This document shows positions 8,370 to 18,921 of a stretch of 32,000 nt of DNA, piece by piece. The stretch lies in NCBI GenBank assembly GCA_045568075.1, contig JBJLBP010000001.1:870001-902000 (forward strand). The letters are read 5' to 3'. Under the pieces are notes generated by a model that did not search any database, was not told where the DNA came from, and worked only from the letters and a program-made list of their open reading frames with translations. Origin of the DNA: Candidatus Thalassarchaeaceae archaeon. Lineage in GTDB: Archaea > Thermoplasmatota > Poseidoniia > Poseidoniales > Thalassarchaeaceae. Each line of letters opens with the position of its first letter. Position 1 is the first letter of the stretch. The position numbers and the translations under genes are program-made.

Positions 8370-8897
8370 TCAATTGGTGATGCGTCCAGCATTGTCGAAT
8401 TCGTGACCTTCGTGAAGAAGCAGACGAATCTTTGTCGCCGGGCCACCTTCTCCACTGTAATTCCCGATGACTCGGTCGCTTCGAACGACGCGATGGCACG
8501 GCACGAGGAGGGGCCAGGGGTTCATCGCCATGACCGACCCAACAGCCCGACTCGCTCCGGGATATCCAGCACCTACGGCTAACTCTGCATAGGACACAGT
8601 TTGGCCGAATCCTGCCTCGCGAACAAGACAGCGTAGCACCTGTGTTTGGAAGGAGGTTAGACTGTTTTCATCGAGCTGAGGAAATGGTGCATTTGACCCT
8701 GCGAAGTATTCTAGAGTCCAATTCTTCGCCACATCGAGGTGCTCATTCGAGCTATCACTACTCCGCACCTCGCCCCATCCGATTTTAGACAATCCAGCAT
8801 TGGTAGCTTCGAAGTGAATCGGGCCGATTGGTGTATCCACCCAATCTCGGACCATATTTCTAATCTGGAATTCAGAGCCCTTGACCTTATCGCCCAT
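8370..8897 (-). CDS. ogt: Methylated-DNA--protein-cysteine methyltransferase
   Basis: Active-site motif LVPCHRVV, with the preceding YAELA...GxxxASRAVG helix-turn-helix segment typical of Ogt/MGMT. Confidence 0.9.
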   Translation of the reverse strand: MGDKVKGSEFQIRNMVRDWVDTPIGPIHFEATNAGLSKIGWGEVRSSDSSNEHLDVAKNWTLEYFAGSNAPFPQLDENSLTSFQTQVLRCLVREAGFGQTVSYAELAVGAGYPGASRAVGSVMAMNPWPLLVPCHRVVRSDRVIGNYSGEGGPATKIRLLLHEGHEFDNAGRITN

Positions 8898-8914: not shown

Positions 8915-9229
8915 TTAGGATTCGTCGCTGACTGACGAATTTTCGTCAGTCTCAGCGGATTCATTCCCACCCTGAATCGCTTCCATGCCGACAATTTCGT
9001 AATTCGAAGGGAAAAGAGCAACAGCAACTCCACCCACAATCGCAGCAACCCCGAGGTAGAATTGCTGTTGGACCATTATCAATTCAAGCCCAATCGCTAC
9101 AAGAAGAAGTCCACCAAGATTGGATATCCACACCAAATTCTTGAAGGTTCCAAGAGAAACTCCTGTTGAATTTTCAGTTCGCTTAGGCCCGAATTCCGCG
9201 CCAAATCTAACAGGATCCTCTTTCTCCAT
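8915..9229 (-). CDS. Small membrane protein (2 TM, acidic C-terminal tail), last gene of the Rieske/cyt b operon
   Basis: 104 aa with two hydrophobic helices (LGGLLLVAIGLELIM and LGVAAIVGGVAVALF). It starts 4 nt after the ferredoxin stop. Confidence 0.6.
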   Translation of the reverse strand: MEKEDPVRFGAEFGPKRTENSTGVSLGTFKNLVWISNLGGLLLVAIGLELIMVQQQFYLGVAAIVGGVAVALFPSNYEIVGMEAIQGGNESAETDENSSVSDES

Positions 9230-9233
9230 TTTA

Positions 9234-9641
9234 TCACCTATCGATCATTAATATCGCGTCTGTTGGACAAGCAAGGACGCAGAGTTTGCAACCTGTGCAG
9301 GGGTCGCGCAGCACGCGTGCTTTGCGATTGACGTCGACGTTCATGATGGGACTTGCTAAAGGTGTGTCAAAGAGTTCGATCGCATCGTCATCACAGACTA
9401 TCATACAATGGTCACAACCAATGCATAACTCCTCCTTCACCCACGCTACTGCATCCTCTCCACCCTTCAGTTTAGCTCTCTCTTCTGCACGCATTGCATT
9501 CATCATCATACGAATGCGACGTTGTTCGCTCGCTCGGCGAGCAGCGAGGTCGGGAATCTCAGTCATCCGAATCGATGCTGCCGGCTCTGACTTCTCAAGG
9601 CTGCGGTCGCCGCCAGTCAGATTTTCTGACTCCCCAATCAA
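9234..9641 (-). CDS. 2x[4Fe-4S] ferredoxin-domain protein with a charged N-terminal extension
   Basis: It has CIGCDHCMIVCDDDAI (CxxCxxCxxxC followed by D rather than P) and CTGCKLCVLACPTDAI. About 70 aa of a Glu/Arg-rich segment come before them. The gene starts 13 nt after the fusion gene stop, and the exact start is uncertain. Confidence 0.8.
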   Translation of the reverse strand: MIGESENLTGGDRSLEKSEPAASIRMTEIPDLAARRASEQRRIRMMMNAMRAEERAKLKGGEDAVAWVKEELCIGCDHCMIVCDDDAIELFDTPLASPIMNVDVNRKARVLRDPCTGCKLCVLACPTDAILMIDR

Positions 9642-9654
9642 GGGTTCTAGACTC

Positions 9655-12444
9655 TCACTGGCGCTTTGCGTCGATTTGCCGTGCTAGGAAGGAGACGACG
9701 TCAAGGATCTCGAAGTCGTGTCTTGGGTCACCTTCGAACTTGAGGCACTCGAAGTGACTGACACACTTCGGGCAACTCGTGAGCATAATCTCAGCACCTG
9801 TTGCCTTGACTTCGTCGAATCGCTCTAGGCGCAGCGCCCTACTATTCTCGTTGCAGGACATCATGCTAGATACACCGCAGCAAAGGGCATCCTCGCCGGT
9901 GTGCTCCATCTCGACCAGATCTACACCGTCGATCGCACGAACGAGGTCGCGCGGCTCTTCGTAGATGTTCATCTGACGTCCAAGTCGACAGGGGTCGTGG
10001 TAGGTGACGGTGACATCTTCAGGGGTAGCCAGATCCATGTCGAAGCCATTCTCGATGAGATATTCGGTCGTGTGCATGACCTTCATGTCCTCAAGTTCGT
10101 AATCCATTGCAAAGGTGCGGAAGCACTCTGCACAAGATGTGACTAAGGTGTCGATTCCACTGTCTCCCAGCTTCTTCTGATTGTAGGCCTTGAGTTTCTC
10201 GAAGACTTCTGTCATTCCTTGCCACTTCTGATCGTGTCCACAGCACTTTAGGAAGTCTCGACCGAGGTAAGTGACATCCTTCCCCATTTCATCAAAGATG
10301 GTGAATGCGGCAGTCGTTGTTTCTCCGAGGTTCATTTCTCCTTCATTGACATGGCTGAAAATCATCTCTTGGTCAATGTAATCGACGCAGCCGGGGTAGT
10401 AGCCAACGCTCGAATCGATTGGATACTCATCAATTGGAATGAATGCTGAGTTTGCATCTTCCTCCGCCTCTGCAGCCAATACTGCCTGGAGTATAGAGTG
10501 GGGGATTTCGGCAGCAGGTGGGCCGCCGACAATCAGGTTACGGCGAATGTCGACGTAGGAGTCATAATCGACCAATTGCGGGCAGGCGTTGGTGCAAGCG
10601 GTACATGTCAGACATGAGTACAATGGAACGCCGTCATCTTCGTTATTCCATGTATTGTAGATGATGTTGAGTTTGTCTCCAGCGTTGAAGAGGCGAACTG
10701 GACAAGCGTCATCACAAAGGTCGCAGCCGTAGCACTTGTTCATTTCCCATTCGTAGCCGCGTGCCATACTGCGCATCAGCATGAAGACGACTGCACCAAT
10801 TCCAAGGCATGGGATGAACATCGAATAGATCAACTTGGCATCAAGGCTCTTCGGATTCTTCTGGAAGGTTGGATTCTCAAGGCTCATCGCCTCAAGATCA
10901 GTTCCAGCAGGTAAGTCGGCGCGGTTTGCAGCTGCTCCGTTCGCGTCAAGTAGGAGGGGTTGGAAGGCTTTAGCCGAGAAGTCGGTGATCATTGTCACGG
11001 TCTCATTGACCTCGCTCGAAGAGATGCTATATTCGAGATTGTAATTACCCGGTGCGAGTTTTAGGGTGGTGCTACCACACTCGCCATCTGTTGACCAAAG
11101 TACCTTTCCTGCATCATTACTGATACTGAGGTCCTGAGTGTGGCTGCCAGCGTTGCGCACAGTCGTACGGAAGTTACAACCGACATCGACGAAGACGCTT
11201 GATAGTCCAATGTCTTCGACGTGTATGACATCAGTCCACGAATGTTCGATAATTGTCGAATCCACATTACCGTCGTATTCGTATGAACTACTACCAGCAA
11301 CGTTGCGGCCACTTTCGATATCGCCATGTCCATTGACACCTTCGAAGTCGATGATGGTGCTCTGAGTTGGTTGGAAAATACCCCAATTCGTCCAATGTTC
11401 GGCTGGGATGACGCACCATTTGGTATGGTCTTCACCTTCGTCTAAACTTGACCAAACTCCAAGTTCAGAAGAATCGGAGAAAGTAAGACACTCATCGCCC
11501 CAATTATCCCAATCGTCCCCTTTGCCATAATAGACGAGTGTGTCTGCGGGCTGGCCACGCATTGTCTCCAACTCCTCTACATCGTCCATTGCACCAAGTC
11601 CGCCGTAATCCCAGAAGCCGCCTTCGTAAATCGGCCAGGTAACTGCAGAGATAAGTACGGCTAGGATAATGGAACCAATTGCTACTTGCTTGCCCATATT
11701 CGGCGTCAATCTAGCACCGATTGAATTGACGAGGAACCATCTGACGCTGAAAAACAATACAGTGAAGATGAAAATTCCAGTGAGAATCCACGGCACCGCA
11801 TTGAATACCTCAGCCGTCCAAGGCGCCTGCCTTCCACAATCAAAGATATGATGCGAATTCGCCCAGCAATAATCCGTACGGTCTTTGGAATATAATTCGA
11901 GGAAGATATTGATTGAGAAGACTGAGATGAACCACACGTGTGCGAGATAGACTGCACCAGCGGTCGCAAACCAAGGGTCTTCGGCTGGGCGCTTCTCACG
12001 GCCTCCAAGGAAAGGTGGAAGAGCGAGGATACCAACTGGAATACCTGTCAGGAAGGCGCCCCACCAAGCAGCGTTCCATGAAATCACAGGGGATCCAAGG
12101 AACTCACCGATTGGACCGGCTGGAATAACAAATTGTGGTAGATATTCACCCCATCTTAGATATCCATAGGAGAACAGAACATACCAGTCAGGGAATACGA
12201 AGCCAGCCTGAGCAAATGGATCCGCTGCACTGTGCAATGGCGGTGGAATCAACCAGCAATAAAATGCCAGAACCATCATCATCGCTGCGAGAATAATCGA
12301 ATCGCGCAGGACCTCAGTAGGCCAGAAAGCGTGACCCATGTGAACTCGCCTGCGCTCTTTCTCACCTTCGAGGAGACTGCTTTTCTCACGAACATATGTG
12401 TCCGCGATGCGTCCGAATCTATCGATCATACCCATGTCAAACAC
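9655..12444 (-). CDS. Fusion protein: cytochrome b C-terminal (subunit IV-like) membrane domain + extracytoplasmic domain + HdrD/GlpC-like Fe-S/CCG domain
   Basis: 929 aa. The N-terminal region has HAFWPTEVLRD, PDWYVLFSYGYLRW (PEWY-type motif), LPPFLGGREKRP and 5 TM helices. A ~250-aa acidic domain and a sixth TM follow. Residues 568-929 carry CYGCDLCDDACP and CLTCTACTNACP plus two CCG units (PGC..KCCG..SCAEC and DPC..LCCG..SCPKC). The start is GTG 12444 or ATG 12435. Confidence 0.85.
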   Translation of the reverse strand: MFDMGMIDRFGRIADTYVREKSSLLEGEKERRRVHMGHAFWPTEVLRDSIILAAMMMVLAFYCWLIPPPLHSAADPFAQAGFVFPDWYVLFSYGYLRWGEYLPQFVIPAGPIGEFLGSPVISWNAAWWGAFLTGIPVGILALPPFLGGREKRPAEDPWFATAGAVYLAHVWFISVFSINIFLELYSKDRTDYCWANSHHIFDCGRQAPWTAEVFNAVPWILTGIFIFTVLFFSVRWFLVNSIGARLTPNMGKQVAIGSIILAVLISAVTWPIYEGGFWDYGGLGAMDDVEELETMRGQPADTLVYYGKGDDWDNWGDECLTFSDSSELGVWSSLDEGEDHTKWCVIPAEHWTNWGIFQPTQSTIIDFEGVNGHGDIESGRNVAGSSSYEYDGNVDSTIIEHSWTDVIHVEDIGLSSVFVDVGCNFRTTVRNAGSHTQDLSISNDAGKVLWSTDGECGSTTLKLAPGNYNLEYSISSSEVNETVTMITDFSAKAFQPLLLDANGAAANRADLPAGTDLEAMSLENPTFQKNPKSLDAKLIYSMFIPCLGIGAVVFMLMRSMARGYEWEMNKCYGCDLCDDACPVRLFNAGDKLNIIYNTWNNEDDGVPLYSCLTCTACTNACPQLVDYDSYVDIRRNLIVGGPPAAEIPHSILQAVLAAEAEEDANSAFIPIDEYPIDSSVGYYPGCVDYIDQEMIFSHVNEGEMNLGETTTAAFTIFDEMGKDVTYLGRDFLKCCGHDQKWQGMTEVFEKLKAYNQKKLGDSGIDTLVTSCAECFRTFAMDYELEDMKVMHTTEYLIENGFDMDLATPEDVTVTYHDPCRLGRQMNIYEEPRDLVRAIDGVDLVEMEHTGEDALCCGVSSMMSCNENSRALRLERFDEVKATGAEIMLTSCPKCVSHFECLKFEGDPRHDFEILDVVSFLARQIDAKRQ

Positions 12445-12450
12445 TCTCTA

Positions 12451-13320
12451 TCAATGCGGCTCCGCAATACCCTGAACCCAGACGATGAACAAATGTGCCA
12501 GAATGAGCGCAGTGACAACGACAGGTAAGATGAACACGTGTAGGAAATACATGCGCGTGACCGTTTGGCCCGAAAGCGATGTTCCTGCGAACATGGCGGT
12601 TGCAACCCACCCTCCGATGAGAGGGGTCGAGTTTGCCATGTTGATTCCGATTGTTGCAGCGCCGAAAGCCAGGCTATCCCAAGGAAGGAGGTAGCCCGAG
12701 TAGCCGAAGAAGATTGTGAAGAACATCAAGGCGACTCCGATAAGCCAGTTGAGTTCACGTGGGTTTCTGTATGCTCCCGTGAAATAAACGCGACACATAT
12801 GCAGGAACACAGCAGCCACCATGAAGTGCGTCGTCCAATGATGGATTGAGCGGATGATGTAGCCGAATGGAAGCTGAACCATGATGAATTCCATCGATGA
12901 GTAAGCAGGGGTCGGGTCGCCTTCTCCTCCCGGCACGTAATAGAGTCCGAGAACCGTCCCGGTAATGACTAGGATAACGAAGGCGAGGAAGGAGATCCCT
13001 CCGAGACAGTATAGAGGGTACCAATACCAAATGATTCGAAGTTTGTATTTCTCAGCGTGCGTCAGAGGCATCTGACGGTGCACGCTGTAATACGCATCCC
13101 GACTCATTCCCCAGTAATCTTGGATGCGGAAGCGAGTATCAAGCCAGGAGAATGCCCAGAGGAAGGATTTCTCCGCCAACCCCATACTTCCCGCGCTGGT
13201 CTCAACAGCACGAAGGATGTCCTTGCGGGGCATATCATCGCGCTCTTTACGCAGAGTGAATGCTACCAGCACAACGATGAGGGCGATGAAGAGCCAAAGG
13301 AACCAGAATTGTAGCATCAT
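12451..13320 (-). CDS. Cytochrome b, N-terminal (b6-like) di-haem subunit
   Basis: Helix B reads HWTTHFMVAAVFLH (H-x13-H) and helix D reads HVFILPVVVTALILAH (H-x14-H, the b6-type spacing). YSGYLLPWD and the NWLIGV region are also present. An extra N-terminal TM and ~100 aa precede the core. GAGGTGAG comes before ATGATG. Confidence 0.9.
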   Translation of the reverse strand: MMLQFWFLWLFIALIVVLVAFTLRKERDDMPRKDILRAVETSAGSMGLAEKSFLWAFSWLDTRFRIQDYWGMSRDAYYSVHRQMPLTHAEKYKLRIIWYWYPLYCLGGISFLAFVILVITGTVLGLYYVPGGEGDPTPAYSSMEFIMVQLPFGYIIRSIHHWTTHFMVAAVFLHMCRVYFTGAYRNPRELNWLIGVALMFFTIFFGYSGYLLPWDSLAFGAATIGINMANSTPLIGGWVATAMFAGTSLSGQTVTRMYFLHVFILPVVVTALILAHLFIVWVQGIAEPH

Positions 13321-13326
13321 CTCACC

Positions 13327-14181
13327 TCAGTCGCAATATGTGTACCAGTCTTTGAAGTCCGGGAGGGCTTCAATCGTATCACCCGTAATAACCCACGGGA
13401 TGAGAGGGAGGCCGACAGGAGCTGGGCCACCTGTTCGGCGGATGCCGATAAAATCGAACTCCGCTCCAGTCGAACGGTTTCGACTTCGATTCTTTTCAAT
13501 CGCCGTCGGGTCAAAGCGACTAGAGTGGCAGATACAGAACAATTTGTTGCCACCAGCATCGACCGCGCCGGGCGTCCATTGATTATTTGTGAAATCATTC
13601 TGGACCAATTGCCAGCCCGGAATACAACATAGGTGAGTACAGCGCGAGAAGATGACAACAAGATTGTCGTGAATTGATAGTGGAGCGAGTGCGGGATCTT
13701 CCTCAAGTTCGTAGCCACTACCAACGTATTTCCCGCTCTCGGTATATCCGTCCATGAATTGGAAGCGAGGCTTATCCGTAGCGATTGGAGTCGACGAGTT
13801 CTCGGAGTGAGGTACGTACATCACATTGACTGGAAGACCGGACCAGACACCCTGAGCGCCGACCATTCCGGTCGGGCTGTCAGCGGCGGCATTGACGAAT
13901 GCGGAGTATGACATAGACTCGAGGTGCCGATCACCATACCAAACAGAGTCTTCAGCACCTGAAGGCACCCAGAAGCGAACGGCAGTGTCGCCGCCGGACG
14001 ATTCTGAAGCCCCCATCAATAAGGATGCGAAGCCGATGCTACCGAGGCTAGCCATGGTGATGACACCGGCGGCGGTGTTGAACGAATAACGCATGAATTC
14101 GCGACGATCGATGACGGGATTAGATTCGGAAACCTCATCATCGGCACCCGGAAGTGAACGCAGCCTGAACCTTCTCGCCAT
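13327..14181 (-). CDS. Rieske [2Fe-2S] protein with a twin-arginine signal/anchor
   Basis: Box I is CTHLCC and box II is CICHSS, about 20 aa apart. The N-terminal DRREFMRYSF... plus a hydrophobic stretch is a Tat-type motif. GAGGTG lies upstream of the ATG. Confidence 0.9.
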   Translation of the reverse strand: MARRFRLRSLPGADDEVSESNPVIDRREFMRYSFNTAAGVITMASLGSIGFASLLMGASESSGGDTAVRFWVPSGAEDSVWYGDRHLESMSYSAFVNAAADSPTGMVGAQGVWSGLPVNVMYVPHSENSSTPIATDKPRFQFMDGYTESGKYVGSGYELEEDPALAPLSIHDNLVVIFSRCTHLCCIPGWQLVQNDFTNNQWTPGAVDAGGNKLFCICHSSRFDPTAIEKNRSRNRSTGAEFDFIGIRRTGGPAPVGLPLIPWVITGDTIEALPDFKDWYTYCD

Positions 14182-14184
14182 GAA

Positions 14185-14634
14185 TCACACCTCGTATTGT
14201 TTCCATCCTTCTGTGTCATTGGGTGGGATGAACTTGTTTCGCCTATGCTTGACAACAATTACGTCAGGCATGACAAATCGCAGATAGACGATTCCCATCA
14301 AAATTACGGTTAGTAGAGTCATTGCTAGATGGAAGGAAAGAAGCTGCTGGTCCCAGTTTTTGAACAGGCCGTAAGAGAGAGTTCCAGCCCAAAACAGAGT
14401 CCATAGAATTCCCCAAAGTGCGAATACGATTACCAACCAAGATTCGCCGGATGGAGATATACTAGCTCTGATGATTGTGCCCGGCTCTGGGTCGTTGAAC
14501 ACGCCATGGTCGACCGCTGCCTCGTAGGTTTCCTCGCTTAGGTCTACGCCGGACAATGCATCGCGTGCATCATCGATACTGACCTTACCCGACTTGACTT
14601 CGCGGAGAAGCTTCATGACGATATCGTCTTTCAC
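14185..14634 (-). CDS. Membrane protein (soluble N-terminal helical segment + 2 TM), function unknown
   Basis: 149 aa. Hydrophobic helices are WLVIVFALWGILWTLFWAG and HLAMTLLTVILMGIVYL. It overlaps the upstream gene by 4 nt and ends 3 nt before the Rieske start. Confidence 0.65.
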   Translation of the reverse strand: MKDDIVMKLLREVKSGKVSIDDARDALSGVDLSEETYEAAVDHGVFNDPEPGTIIRASISPSGESWLVIVFALWGILWTLFWAGTLSYGLFKNWDQQLLSFHLAMTLLTVILMGIVYLRFVMPDVIVVKHRRNKFIPPNDTEGWKQYEV

Positions 14635-15446
14635 AGTTGGTCACCCCTTCGAAGATGCTTGATGCGCAGTTTGAGTAGGTTGCTTCGACCCACGTAATGG
14701 CGAGAGAATCCGTATCTCAAGAAGAGTCCGCAGAATAGAATCACAAGAATCACCGCTCCAAAGCCGAGCAGGCCAAGCCAGTGGGCTCGGAGTGCAGCTC
14801 CCATCTCGTGCAGGTCGACGTGAGCCTCGGATGGTGCCGGCGGTTCGATCTCACCATTTCCGCTGAATACAGTCCGAGTTTGGCCAGAGTCTTCGCCTTC
14901 ATCAACCGAGACTGTCAGACGATTCCAGCGGTCGAGTTCAGATGGGATCCCGTCGCCATTAACGGAGTTGCCAGCAAGCCAGATAGTGATTACTCCGCTA
15001 CCAGTTTCAGGAGCGGTCCAGACAATCATCCAACTGCGATCTGCAGTCTCGCTACCGGAGCCTGTGTGAGTCAGGCTAGTAGAGTCATCTTCCCAATTTT
15101 GGACCAGGTTCTCGTATCCTTCTGCTCCGGCGAGCGAACCTGAACTAACGCGCATGGAGAAGCCGCCGGTGTTAGATTCAGTGTCAATAGCTGGCCCTCC
15201 AATCAATTGAATCTTGAGAGTGTAGGTTGTTCCTGCAGAATAATGGTAAGGTAATCCGTCGAGGATTACGGTGACTGAATTATCAGGGAGTTCAGCGTGG
15301 CATGTGCAACCTGCTAGGGCGACGTCTCCCTCGCCATCCTCGTCGCCACCGATGCCATTGGAATAACCTTGAGTTGAACCCGCTAGAAGAAGCGCGAAGC
15401 AGGCAAGAACCAGCAGTCGGTGGGAGGACATTTGATGTGCCTTCAT
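14631..15446 (-). CDS. Secreted, C-terminally membrane-anchored beta-rich protein with a single CxCH motif; first gene of the Rieske/cyt b operon
   Basis: GAGGT lies 6 nt upstream of the ATG at 15446 (MKAHQMSSHRLLVLACFALLLAGSTQG is a signal peptide). The mature part has GCTCHAE, GGFSMRV, WTAPETGSGVITIWLAGNSVNGDG. A C-terminal TM (LGLLGFGAVILVILFCGLFL) and a basic tail follow. Confidence 0.75.
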   Translation of the reverse strand: MKAHQMSSHRLLVLACFALLLAGSTQGYSNGIGGDEDGEGDVALAGCTCHAELPDNSVTVILDGLPYHYSAGTTYTLKIQLIGGPAIDTESNTGGFSMRVSSGSLAGAEGYENLVQNWEDDSTSLTHTGSGSETADRSWMIVWTAPETGSGVITIWLAGNSVNGDGIPSELDRWNRLTVSVDEGEDSGQTRTVFSGNGEIEPPAPSEAHVDLHEMGAALRAHWLGLLGFGAVILVILFCGLFLRYGFSRHYVGRSNLLKLRIKHLRRGDQL

Positions 15447-18823: not shown

Positions 18824-18897
18824 GGGCCTGTAGCTTAGTCAGGTAGAGCGCCGGGCTTTTAACCCGGTGGCCGGGGGTTCGAATCCCCCCAGGCCCG
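18824..18897 (+). tRNA. tRNA-Lys (anticodon UUU)
   Basis: Cloverleaf read by hand: acceptor GGGCCTG/CAGGCCC, D arm GCTT-AGTCAGGTA-GAGC, anticodon stem CCGGG/CCCGG with loop CTTTTAA, T arm GGGGG-TTCGAAT-CCCCC, discriminator G. No intron, and no encoded CCA. Confidence 0.92.
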
Positions 18898-18921
18898 CCT
18901 GACAAAGCCTCAGGCTAGCGG

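Follow-up and report, generated by a model that had tools for sequence, protein, structure and literature searches.

A Rieske/cytochrome b gene cluster of Marine Group II archaea predicted to be wired to a cytoplasmic iron-sulfur chain

Architecture of the gene cluster

The DNA analysed here, hereafter the window, is a stretch of 32,000 nucleotides (nt) from Candidatus Thalassarchaeaceae archaeon (contig JBJLBP010000001.1, positions 870,001 to 902,000). On the minus strand between positions 8915 and 15446 it carries seven genes (g1–g7) for a Rieske/cytochrome b complex, one of which encodes a fusion of the C-terminal half of cytochrome b with an HdrD-like iron-sulfur (Fe-S) module. Sequence comparison indicates that the complex III of Marine Group II (MGII) is a b6f-type Rieske/cytochrome b complex, probably hard-wired to a cytoplasmic Fe-S chain. 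An initial annotation had read the locus as a branched or bifurcating quinol oxidoreductase. The anatomy and the conservation hold, and the reading as a whole is partly supported.

All seven open reading frames (ORFs) that had been claimed were found. The first, g1 (14631..15446), encodes a protein with a signal peptide, an ectodomain and a C-terminal transmembrane (TM) helix. It is followed by g2 (14185..14634), a 2-TM subunit; g3 (13327..14181), a Tat-exported Rieske [2Fe-2S] protein; g4 (12451..13320), the cytochrome b6-like N-terminal half of cytochrome b; g5 (9655-12444), the fusion; g6 (9234..9641), an RnfB-like 2x[4Fe-4S] ferredoxin; and g7 (8915..9229), a small 2-TM subunit. The identities given earlier to g2–g7 hold. 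No product contains a CxxCH haem c motif (0/7), as had been stated, and none of the seven has a cupredoxin domain.

The genes had been described as tightly packed. For the longest ORFs this is correct, with intergenic gaps from g1 to g7 of -4, 3, 6, 6, 13 and 4 nt. However, the database gene call starts g5 at ATG 12435 (926 aa, against 929 aa for the longest ORF), and comparison of orthologues places the beginning of the conserved core of g6, and likely its true start, at ATG 9566 (110 aa). The g4–g5 and g5–g6 gaps are therefore probably 15 and 88 nt. The genes g4 and g5 share one reading frame, with TGA TAG AGA between them (12435-12450).

The fusion protein g5

The 929-aa g5 product combines a PDWY-type cytochrome b half, six TM helices, two CxxCxxCxxxC motifs and two CCG domains. 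Residues 36-190 (11875..12339, minus strand, as for all segments of g5) resemble subunit IV of the b6f complex, or the C-terminal half of cytochrome b, with helices E, F and G and the Qo motif PDWY. Residues 209-560 (10765..11820) are specific to MGII and comprise two extra TM helices, an acidic ectodomain of ~260 aa and a returning TM helix. The remainder, residues 564-929 (9655..10755), is a cytoplasmic HdrD/EtfD-like module with cubane motifs at C571-C581 and C611-C621, followed by the two CCG domains.

Taken alone, residues ~36-190 match only b6f subunit IV and cytochrome b C-halves, and these weakly (E 0.04). A family profile built from six divergent short orthologues puts the assignment on firm ground. 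Its positions 15-190 match cytochrome b C-halves (1.5e-12) and b6f subunit IV (8e-10), positions 204-295 match HdrC, positions 317-552 match HdrB, and positions 240-575 match the structure of mycobacterial EtfD (9ojn, chain 405-767) at 3.4e-37. EtfD is likewise the best match of the single g5 sequence in the PDB (8.5e-22, chain 408-747), followed by LutA and HdrB, and is found by Foldseek at 1.8e-13 in an alignment over 511 columns; the HdrB fold is also matched. Among families, the C-terminal half matches Pfam CCG in two stretches (9.7e-23) as well as Fer4_8/9/10, the best NCBIfam match is TfrB (2.7e-31), and PF00032 is matched by the short-form orthologues. Judging from these comparisons, g5 is a real and ancient fusion.

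Hydropathy and the secondary structure of the AlphaFold2 (AF2) model place six TM helices in g5; the K/R-rich loops lie on the same side as the N-terminus and the Fe-S domain. Starting from an N-terminus on the n-side, six helices put the Fe-S half in the cytoplasm, where clusters lacking an export signal would be expected. The MGII ectodomain consists of a helical part and a GOLD-like β-sandwich (GOLD matches at about 1e-4; AF2 pLDDT about 90). The short forms lack the MGII insert and have only a fourth helix, which is homologous to helix H of long cytochromes b. Some marine Euryarchaeota metagenome-assembled genomes (MAGs) contain longer variants of 1334-1349 aa (P0318, P0373, P0385), extending ~400 aa beyond the MGII form.

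Conservation was assessed in an alignment of 47 diverse g5 orthologues with 32-97% identity to the window protein. P85, D86 and W87 are invariant, and Y88 is present in 46/47. All eight cubane cysteines and nine of the ten CCG cysteines are kept in 47/47 sequences; the tenth, C735, is kept in 45/47. Loss of cluster-binding cysteines from the HdrD-like half in most orthologues, which the initial annotation had named as evidence to the contrary, is thus not seen. Cys735, a ligand of the distal cluster, has given way to Val in 2/47 orthologues, and P0129/P0132 have Val/Thr there. This replacement resembles the TCTG of EtfD and argues against a strictly HdrB-like two-cluster catalytic site.

In 45/47 orthologues, 7-18 residues separate the last TM helix from the first cluster motif. 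So short a tether would hold the cubane domain against the n-side face of the membrane, which is an expectation rather than a measured distance.

The cytochrome b6-like subunit and the haem cn motif

The g4 product matches Pfam Cytochrome_B (3.2e-41) and cytochrome b6 in the PDB (2.6e-41), and has one additional N-terminal TM helix. In the alignment with cytochrome b6 all four haem-ligating histidines are kept (equivalents of H86, H100, H187 and H202). The same alignment pairs the YCLGG of g4 with the FYCLGG containing Cys35 of cytochrome b6. In such CxGG motifs the cysteine binds haem cn covalently (PMC5600118). We conclude that g4 carries a candidate covalent haem cn site, which the initial annotation had overlooked. 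Given this motif, the statement that the cluster has no c-type haem holds for CxxCH haems only. We identified no haem cn maturation system.

CLGG is present in 78/80 loci of our sample of 80 species-level MGIIb genomes, and CxGG in 7/8 family members compared (the window and 6/7 relatives). The exception is the Geothermarchaeales cytochrome b, which reads YYLGS and is without the haem cn cysteine. CxGG is also missing from the archaeal split cytochromes b of an earlier survey, the haloarchaeal subfamily N (PMC5600118).

Two further features of g4 are shared by all family members. Its C-terminus (12451-12475) contains an invariant QG[IVL]AEPH, and an n-side insert, MPxTHxE[KR]Y, precedes helix A (about 13000-13060). 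As a speculation, the C-terminus and this insert may together form the docking face for the Fe-S domain.

Rieske protein, ferredoxin and small subunits

The Rieske assignment of g3 is based on its motifs and a sub-threshold family match. The sequence contains a Tat motif (RREFM) at residue 26, Rieske box I (CTHLCC) at 181 and box II (CICHSS) at 216, and it matches NCBIfam Rieske_proteo at 4.9e-11, under the family cut-off. As a single sequence, it has 0 matches in the PDB at 0.01. A Tat signal and both Rieske boxes are likewise present in 7/7 relatives examined.

The g6 ferredoxin has a basic N-terminal extension and matches Fer4_21 at 3.9e-13. Its match to rnfB (TIGR01944) reaches 9.4e-13 and 48.1 bits, below the family cut-off of 68.7. 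No further rnf genes are found within the window, and the other rnf genes have been reported lacking in MGII (PMC6336850). Thus g6 is not an Rnf component, since both the family score and the RnfACDEG partners are wanting. It is the "orphan RnfB" reported for MGII (PMC6336850).

The g2 protein has a GWDQ motif and a basic tail and belongs to the DUF7318 family; its own match is weak (1.2e-4), and that of its counterparts in L081, L082 and L085-L088 is strong. In every relative examined, a DUF7318 gene lies directly upstream of the Rieske gene. In g7, the first TM helix contains a conserved G(I/L)E(M/L), and the match to DUF7322 is weak. Several metagenome loci, as well as L081, L084-L086 and L088, have a g7 homologue behind the variable Fe-S module.

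The acceptor position

In canonical complexes the Rieske protein hands its electron to cytochrome c1 or f. In the window, g1 occupies the corresponding position. The initial annotation had described it as a secreted CxCH protein; the signal peptide and the CTCH (residue 47 of 271) are there, but the C-terminal TM helix makes it a membrane-anchored protein rather than a simply secreted one. The ectodomain is a β-sandwich with a reeler fold and a GCxCH motif, followed by the TM helix and a cytoplasmic tail. The protein matches NCBIfam choice-of-anchor V (2.6e-26), and the best PDB match of its AF2 model (pLDDT 76) is the F-spondin reeler domain (E 7e-7). Residues C47, C49, H50, H127, H213, M215 and H222 are invariant among 36 orthologues with 61-84% identity.

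We considered whether CxCH could make g1 a c-type cytochrome. A search of full-text literature returned no use of CxCH as a haem motif, the sole hit with sequence context being Rieske box II, and the ectodomain has only two cysteines; we therefore rejected this assignment. A Rieske-like or a copper site in g1 is a matter of speculation: the model has weak fold matches to the copper protein YcnI (E about 4e-3), which are not sufficient to support it. The n-region reads SRRxF in some orthologues and HR, KR or QK in others, which bears on Tat export. The best-conserved parts of g1 are the TM helix and the tail, RYGFSRHYxGRSNLLxLRIKHLRRGDQL (14631-14780), ahead of the ectodomain; both are invariant in the 36 orthologues. 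Their conservation suggests that g1 specifically contacts another subunit at the cytoplasmic face.

The acceptor position upstream of DUF7318/Rieske varies among relatives. L083 has a TM-anchored pentahaem cytochrome c with five CxxCH motifs. In L086, a cupredoxin is fused to the N-terminus of cytochrome b, an arrangement with which the description of Angelarchaeales in PMC9038741 agrees. The statement that a c1/f-type acceptor is missing is thus correct in that no product has CxxCH, but the position is a variable one and is filled by g1 in MGII. We regard g1 as a candidate high-potential acceptor, a functional stand-in for cytochrome c1/f.

A further variant of the acceptor side is seen in the Thermoplasmata loci L081, L085, L087 and L088, where about 600 of the some 875 aa of cytochrome b are Big_5 domains, N-terminal and extracytoplasmic. 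Upstream of these genes, in divergent orientation, lies a gene for a large CARDB-domain protein.

The SoxLN-CbsAB system of Sulfolobus offers a parallel, since its own cluster encodes the membrane-anchored extracytoplasmic β-sandwich redox protein that holds the role of c1/f. This protein, CbsA, binds haem b, whereas g1 has a reeler-like fold with the invariant GCxCH.

Conservation within Marine Group II

The order g1-g7 is kept in the 80 MGIIb genomes wherever the contig permits, and also in MGIIa, so that the arrangement is no product of chance. Counts over the 80 loci are 80 for g5, 79 for g4, 78 for g6, 77 for g3, 76 for g7, and 72 each for g1 and g2, the missing genes lying apparently mostly at contig ends or on short contigs. 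The ferredoxin g6 stands directly behind the fusion in 78/80 loci, and g1 is the first gene of the cluster in 72/80; both hold in MGIIa as well. The MGIIa sample (Poseidoniaceae) is one genome, L084, which has all seven genes and ogt.

Inside MGII, the flanking genes (FtsZ-like, TPR, MeaB, ogt) are equally syntenic. We therefore did not accept conservation within MGII as proof of function and used the non-MGII loci described below instead.

The ogt gene, for O6-methylguanine-DNA methyltransferase, occupies 8370-8897 on the same strand, 17 nt 3' of g7. Of the MGIIb loci, 49/80 have it behind g7, as does MGIIa. Co-transcription with the respiratory genes is possible, although a functional link to them is not evident.

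About 14 MGIIb genomes (L027, L034, L046, L049, L057, L058, L060-L063, L065, L067, L068, L074) have an insertion of ~1.3 kb between g6 and g7. In L027, the one examined, the insert (10670-11917, minus strand) is a gene on the strand opposite to the cluster, read as a glycosyltransferase from sequence alone, and we rejected it as a redox partner. As the insert is on the opposite strand, g7 has no shared transcript with g1-g6 in these genomes and yet remains adjacent.

The wider surroundings are housekeeping genes: eIF6, parts of propionyl-CoA carboxylase, MeaB, an FtsZ-like protein, biotin ligase and RNA polymerase. The window begins inside an archaeal 23S rRNA gene (3' half, 1-1447), followed by the 5S rRNA gene (1530-1650); a tRNA-Lys(UUU) gene lies at 18824-18899. 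The genomes nearest to the window are MAGs of Candidatus Thalassarchaeaceae / Poseidoniales (Marine Group II b), with protein identity of at most 96%.

Conservation and partner modules beyond Marine Group II

A representative library and a second search yielded fusions outside MGII of 518-798 aa, with less than 50% identity and Pfam matches to Cytochrom_B_C, Fer4 and CCG. Their loci share a core in which DUF7318 (2 TM), Tat-Rieske, the cytochrome b6-like protein and the fusion are followed by a cytoplasmic module that varies and, in most cases, by a small 2-TM protein. This core was seen in a complete 2.28-Mb Thermoplasmata genome, a Geothermarchaeales MAG and several soil and sediment contigs. 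The cytochrome b6-like gene lies directly upstream of the fusion in 14/15 metagenome loci, the exception being a 1.6-kb contig fragment, and in 7/7 non-MGII loci reached via database proteins. The cluster is therefore kept as a unit in relatives, as the reading of the initial annotation required, and the fusion does not stand apart from Rieske/cytochrome b genes.

The module behind the fusion differs between lineages. In L081, L085, L087 and L088 it is a polyferredoxin fused to FlpD/MvhD, and in L086 it consists of an HdrA-like flavoprotein, a Fer4 protein and FlpD. L083 has HdrC- and HdrB-like proteins. The longest module is that of the Geothermarchaeales locus L082 (3707-11710), with an FrhB-like protein, HdrA, FlpD, a second HdrD-like protein, a GcvH-like lipoyl-carrier and an FAD oxidase. 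L082 also encodes a third CCG protein, and its gene set recalls the sulfur-oxidising Hdr-like/LbpA systems.

These loci bear on the possibility that the Fe-S half and g6 are uncoupled from the b haems, serving as an assembly, anchoring or regulatory device (for instance, fixing an unrelated cytoplasmic oxidoreductase to the membrane) or reflecting mere MGII synteny. Such an explanation would fit the equal synteny of the flanking housekeeping genes, and the AF2 model gives low confidence in the cubane region (pLDDT 40-50) and no information on the interface. We nevertheless consider it very improbable. The fusion is covalent, with a short and conserved tether; it persists in lineages that have no flanking synteny in common and differ in acceptors and partners; the variable Fe-S modules are inserted behind the fusion and ahead of the small TM gene that is conserved as the last one; and in HdrDE and EtfD, which are homologous, such an architecture serves as an electron wire.

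A further 65 HdrD-like genes in the metagenome scan stand free, lacking any cytochrome b gene within 7 kb; they have 42-50% identity to the HdrD half of g5. Both of the annotated cases (L123 5373-12571 and L148 4651-9516) are HdrC-HdrB-HdrA clusters, and one free-standing HdrD-like cluster adjoins mch, for methenyl-H4MPT cyclohydrolase. From these sequences, it looks as if an HdrD module of anaerobic archaeal type was captured by subunit IV, and there are hints of an origin in methanogen-type metabolism.

A link to Hdr proteins raises the question of whether the CCG clusters form a catalytic thiol/disulfide site. The complex would then connect the quinone pool with a disulfide in the cytoplasm, either of low molecular weight or on a protein, as a quinol:disulfide reductase or a thiol:quinone oxidoreductase, with g6 as an accessory branch. 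Both CCG motifs are complete in MGII (5 + 5 Cys) and in 45/47 orthologues, the fold matches HdrB, and the CCG domain of TfrB, the best NCBIfam match, oxidises thiols. Partner genes can be read in the same sense, namely the HdrC/HdrB-like genes of L083, the GcvH-like lipoyl-carrier of L082 and a gene for GshA (gamma-glutamylcysteine ligase) near the cluster in MGIIa L084. However, MGII are not methanogens and no candidate disulfide substrate was identified; the GshA adjacency is not conserved and does not occur in the window; and some orthologues lack the second Cys of CCG-1. Every lineage has extra ferredoxin-type subunits, which is more relay-like, and the clusters of EMO/EtfD can be pure electron carriers. 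We regard a catalytic site as rather improbable.

Comparison with known systems

By sequence, the cluster has the characters of the Rieske/cytochrome b family, a recognised acceptor subunit excepted, and g5 has those of the CCG family. Functionally, it would be like b6f/b6c in the membrane and on the p-side, and like EtfD/HdrDE/DsrMK on the n-side. With b6f and the b6c complexes of Firmicutes it shares a Tat-Rieske protein, a four-helix b6-like subunit with four His and CxGG, a separate PEWY-type Qo half and small TM subunits. Unlike them, the MGII complex has no cytochrome f/c subunit and no CxxCH haem, contains an extra ferredoxin and occurs in an archaeal host. In contrast to b6f, subunit IV has a fourth helix here (in MGII two more, and the 260-aa ectodomain) and continues into the HdrD-like module.

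EtfD of mycobacteria (9ojn) and EMO of Syntrophus have the same domain order as g5, with a membrane domain, two cubane clusters and two CCG domains. EtfD is the best match of the cytoplasmic half of g5 in both sequence and fold, but the sequence matches are limited to the Fe-S/CCG part. EtfD/EMO bind haem b in a membrane domain that is complete in itself and of the HdrE/NarI kind, whereas that of g5 is a haem-free subunit-IV half with the haems on a neighbouring subunit. Because its membrane part is subunit IV, g5 is not an EtfD/EMO protein. EtfD/EMO also lack the Rieske protein and the Qo site, both of which the MGII complex has, and the first CCG domain of EtfD holds a 4-Cys linear cluster where MGII has retained five Cys. 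No etf genes occur within the window.

HdrDE, DsrMK(JOP), Hme, Tmc and Hmc likewise place a cytoplasmic cubane + CCG protein on a membrane di-haem b protein, which trades electrons with the pool of quinone or methanophenazine. The b cytochromes of all these complexes are of the NarI/HdrE type, which has one quinol site only and lacks a bifurcating Qo/Rieske system. The substrates of HdrDE and DsrMK, CoM-S-S-CoB and DsrC, are not expected in MGII, and in g5 the membrane subunit and the HdrD-like part form one chain. No HdrE-like gene occurs within the window; the partner of the HdrD-like part is the Rieske/cytochrome b core.

The R/b-2 and R/b-3 complexes of Kuenenia stuttgartiensis resemble the cluster in combining a Rieske/cytochrome b core with extra redox subunits, and for them too a low-potential branch to the cytoplasm has been considered. 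Unlike in those complexes, neither an NAD(P)/FAD subunit nor a multihaem cytochrome is encoded in the window, and the n-side module is a CCG/Fe-S wire fused to subunit IV. Among the relatives, HdrA-like flavoproteins are found in L082 and L086 only. The Rieske/cytochrome b cluster of Methanoperedens encodes pentahaem c acceptors and hypothetical small subunits (PMC4683180); a pentahaem c acceptor is common to it and L083.

Fusions of cytochrome b with Fe-S domains are also known in bacteria. The PDWF-FeS proteins of Magnetospirillum, Turneriella and Alicycliphilus join cytochrome b to 4Fe-4S/MvhD or ferredoxin/flavin domains (Kao and Hunte 2014, PMC4122944). They have PDWF and no Rieske protein, and no CCG domains are reported for them; the archaeal fusions have PDWY, an adjacent Rieske gene and a CCG module. 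MvhD/polyferredoxin is fused in the bacterial proteins and encoded by separate genes in the g5 relatives. The comparison shows that n-side Fe-S extensions of bc-type cytochrome b arose more than once.

Direction of electron flow

The subunits suggest a common scheme up to the n-side. Quinol, probably menaquinol given the PDWY motif, which marks a menaquinol-type, low-potential system (PMC4122944), would be oxidised at Qo. The high-potential electron would pass through the Rieske protein to g1 and on to a terminal oxidase, and the low-potential electron would cross the membrane through the b haems to the n-side in Q-cycle fashion. There, the fused Fe-S chain would lie against the n-side face next to haem bn/cn and act as a wire to the cytoplasm. 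The fusion, the short tether and the homologous EtfD structure together suggest that its clusters exchange electrons with haem bn/cn.

We slightly favour an inward flow of electrons along this wire, from ferredoxin or ETF towards Qi, and give it a probability of roughly 0.4. Ferredoxin docked on the RnfB-like g6, or ETF, would reduce the CCG and cubane clusters, from which electrons would reach haem cn/bn and the Qi-side quinone. Complex III would thus double as a ferredoxin/ETF:quinone reductase. In relatives the wire would be lengthened by polyferredoxin-MvhD, HdrA, FrhB or HdrBC, coupling other cytoplasmic donors.

The closest structural precedent runs in this direction. In EtfD of M. smegmatis, which has the TM-cubane-CCG order, ETF delivers electrons into a chain with steps of 7-9 Å; its last cluster lies 7 Å from a membrane haem b, and menaquinone next to that haem receives the electrons (PMC13083937). 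A preprint on EMO states that such modules commonly hand electrons to quinones. Inward flow is favoured by this precedent together with the fact that some orthologues, like EtfD, have lost the fifth Cys of CCG-1, and also by the nature of the partners, because FrhB-like, HdrA-like and MvhD/FlpD proteins are typical cytoplasmic donor or transfer modules. We also count for it that Diamond et al. proposed an entry of ferredoxin at complex III in Angelarchaeales (PMC9038741), and that MGII are protein and fatty-acid degraders with an orphan RnfB (PMC6336850). For b6f, ferredoxin input at the n-side haem cn has long been proposed (PMC5600118).

Several points weigh against inward flow. Arg207 of cytochrome b6, which contacts haem cn, is replaced in the family, and since the Geothermarchaeales orthologue lacks the cn cysteine, haem cn cannot be essential to coupling. 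Closeness of the Fe-S clusters to the haems is deduced from the 7-18-residue tether alone. Electrons from ferredoxin, at about -400 mV, risk over-reducing the b haems and blocking Qo. Archaeal complex I may already oxidise ferredoxin, making a second entry redundant (PMC9038741).

Other contrary points concern the module itself. It is HdrD-like, with its nearest stand-alone relatives (42-50%) in HdrCBA clusters of anaerobic archaea, and both CCG motifs are complete in MGII, which is compatible with a catalytic site. In HdrDE, DsrMK and Hme, electrons leave the membrane b haems for a cytoplasmic CCG disulfide site. The sequence does not fix the direction, and to the bifurcating exit of the initial annotation, electron entry is an equally good rival.

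According to that proposal, the complex is a branched or bifurcating quinol oxidoreductase whose low-potential electron, in place of or besides re-reducing quinone, exits via the HdrD-like wire and g6 to the cytoplasm. The acceptor would be ferredoxin, a disulfide or, in relatives, NAD(P)/F420 reached through HdrA. This reading draws on the same anatomy as inward flow, with the unit conserved and the cluster ligands retained. The HdrD-like character of the module, the place of its free-standing relatives in Hdr clusters, the complete CCG motifs and the archaeal precedents just mentioned all speak for it. So do the HdrA-like and MvhD genes behind the fusion in L082 and L086, which recall the NAD(P)-oxidoreductase subunits of Kuenenia, and the combination of a pentahaem c acceptor with HdrC/HdrB-like genes in L083. 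An exit would also keep the b haems oxidised, which could mean fewer Qo radicals in a sunlit aerobe.

The energetics are less favourable to it. A menaquinone-type Qo puts the b haems at roughly -100 to -250 mV, hardly low enough for ferredoxin, and a reductant-rich aerobic heterotroph has no obvious need for low-potential reductant. The retained CxGG suggests a working quinone reductase on the Qi side, and the sole solved homologue with the same domain order runs the opposite way. We think the branched exit somewhat less probable than inward flow. As PDWY indicates a low-potential menaquinol system, an exit to a disulfide or an F420/NAD(P)-level acceptor would be more plausible than one to ferredoxin. 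The fuller version, in which the low-potential electron leaves the Q cycle through the wire to ferredoxin or disulfide and the Rieske branch ends on g1 as a new reeler-fold GCxCH carrier, appears unlikely.

Discussion

In textbooks, the Rieske/cytochrome b complex is a Q-cycle machine whose n-side exchanges electrons with quinone only. In the family described here, a chain of as many as six Fe-S clusters would be wired covalently to that side, joined in relatives by modules of flavin-based bifurcation.

Parts of the system had been noticed before. MGII genomes were found to encode one cytochrome b/Rieske pair and no canonical bc1, and in Tully 2019 a complex III specific to MGII is listed apart from an orphan RnfB (PMC6336850). 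Diamond 2022 mentions hdrD-like and rnfB-like genes beside complex III in one lineage (PMC9038741). Our literature search found no account of the fusion, its haem cn motif, the conserved six-gene core, the modular partners or any biochemistry. The HdrD-like partner had been presented initially as a different combination from those known. Its novelty is lessened by the fact that components had been mentioned in passing (PMC9038741, PMC6336850) and that bacterial fusions of cytochrome b with FeS/MvhD domains are known (PMC4122944).

The direction of flow decides what the complex would mean. If electrons enter, it would be a natural, hard-wired version of the disputed ferredoxin-to-haem-cn route in the cyclic electron flow of b6f, and it would explain the "orphan RnfB" and the "MGII-specific complex III" of MGII genome surveys. 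If electrons leave, it would be a direct example of quinol-based bifurcation feeding cytoplasmic low-potential carriers, so far only proposed, for anammox. Such an exit would operate in highly abundant archaea of the surface ocean and, together with HdrA, MvhD and FrhB, also in other Thermoplasmatota and Geothermarchaeales.

In either direction, models of respiration and of ferredoxin/ETF balance in Marine Group II would change. An HdrD-wired Rieske/cytochrome b complex, surprising to specialists, would be carried by a globally abundant group, and an HdrD module of methanogen-type metabolism would be linked to aerobic respiration in Thermoplasmatota. The short-form orthologues are a compact system that can be tested. 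Two old questions would thereby be opened to experiment, the entry of electrons from the n-side at haem cn, and quinol bifurcation with an escaping low-potential electron.

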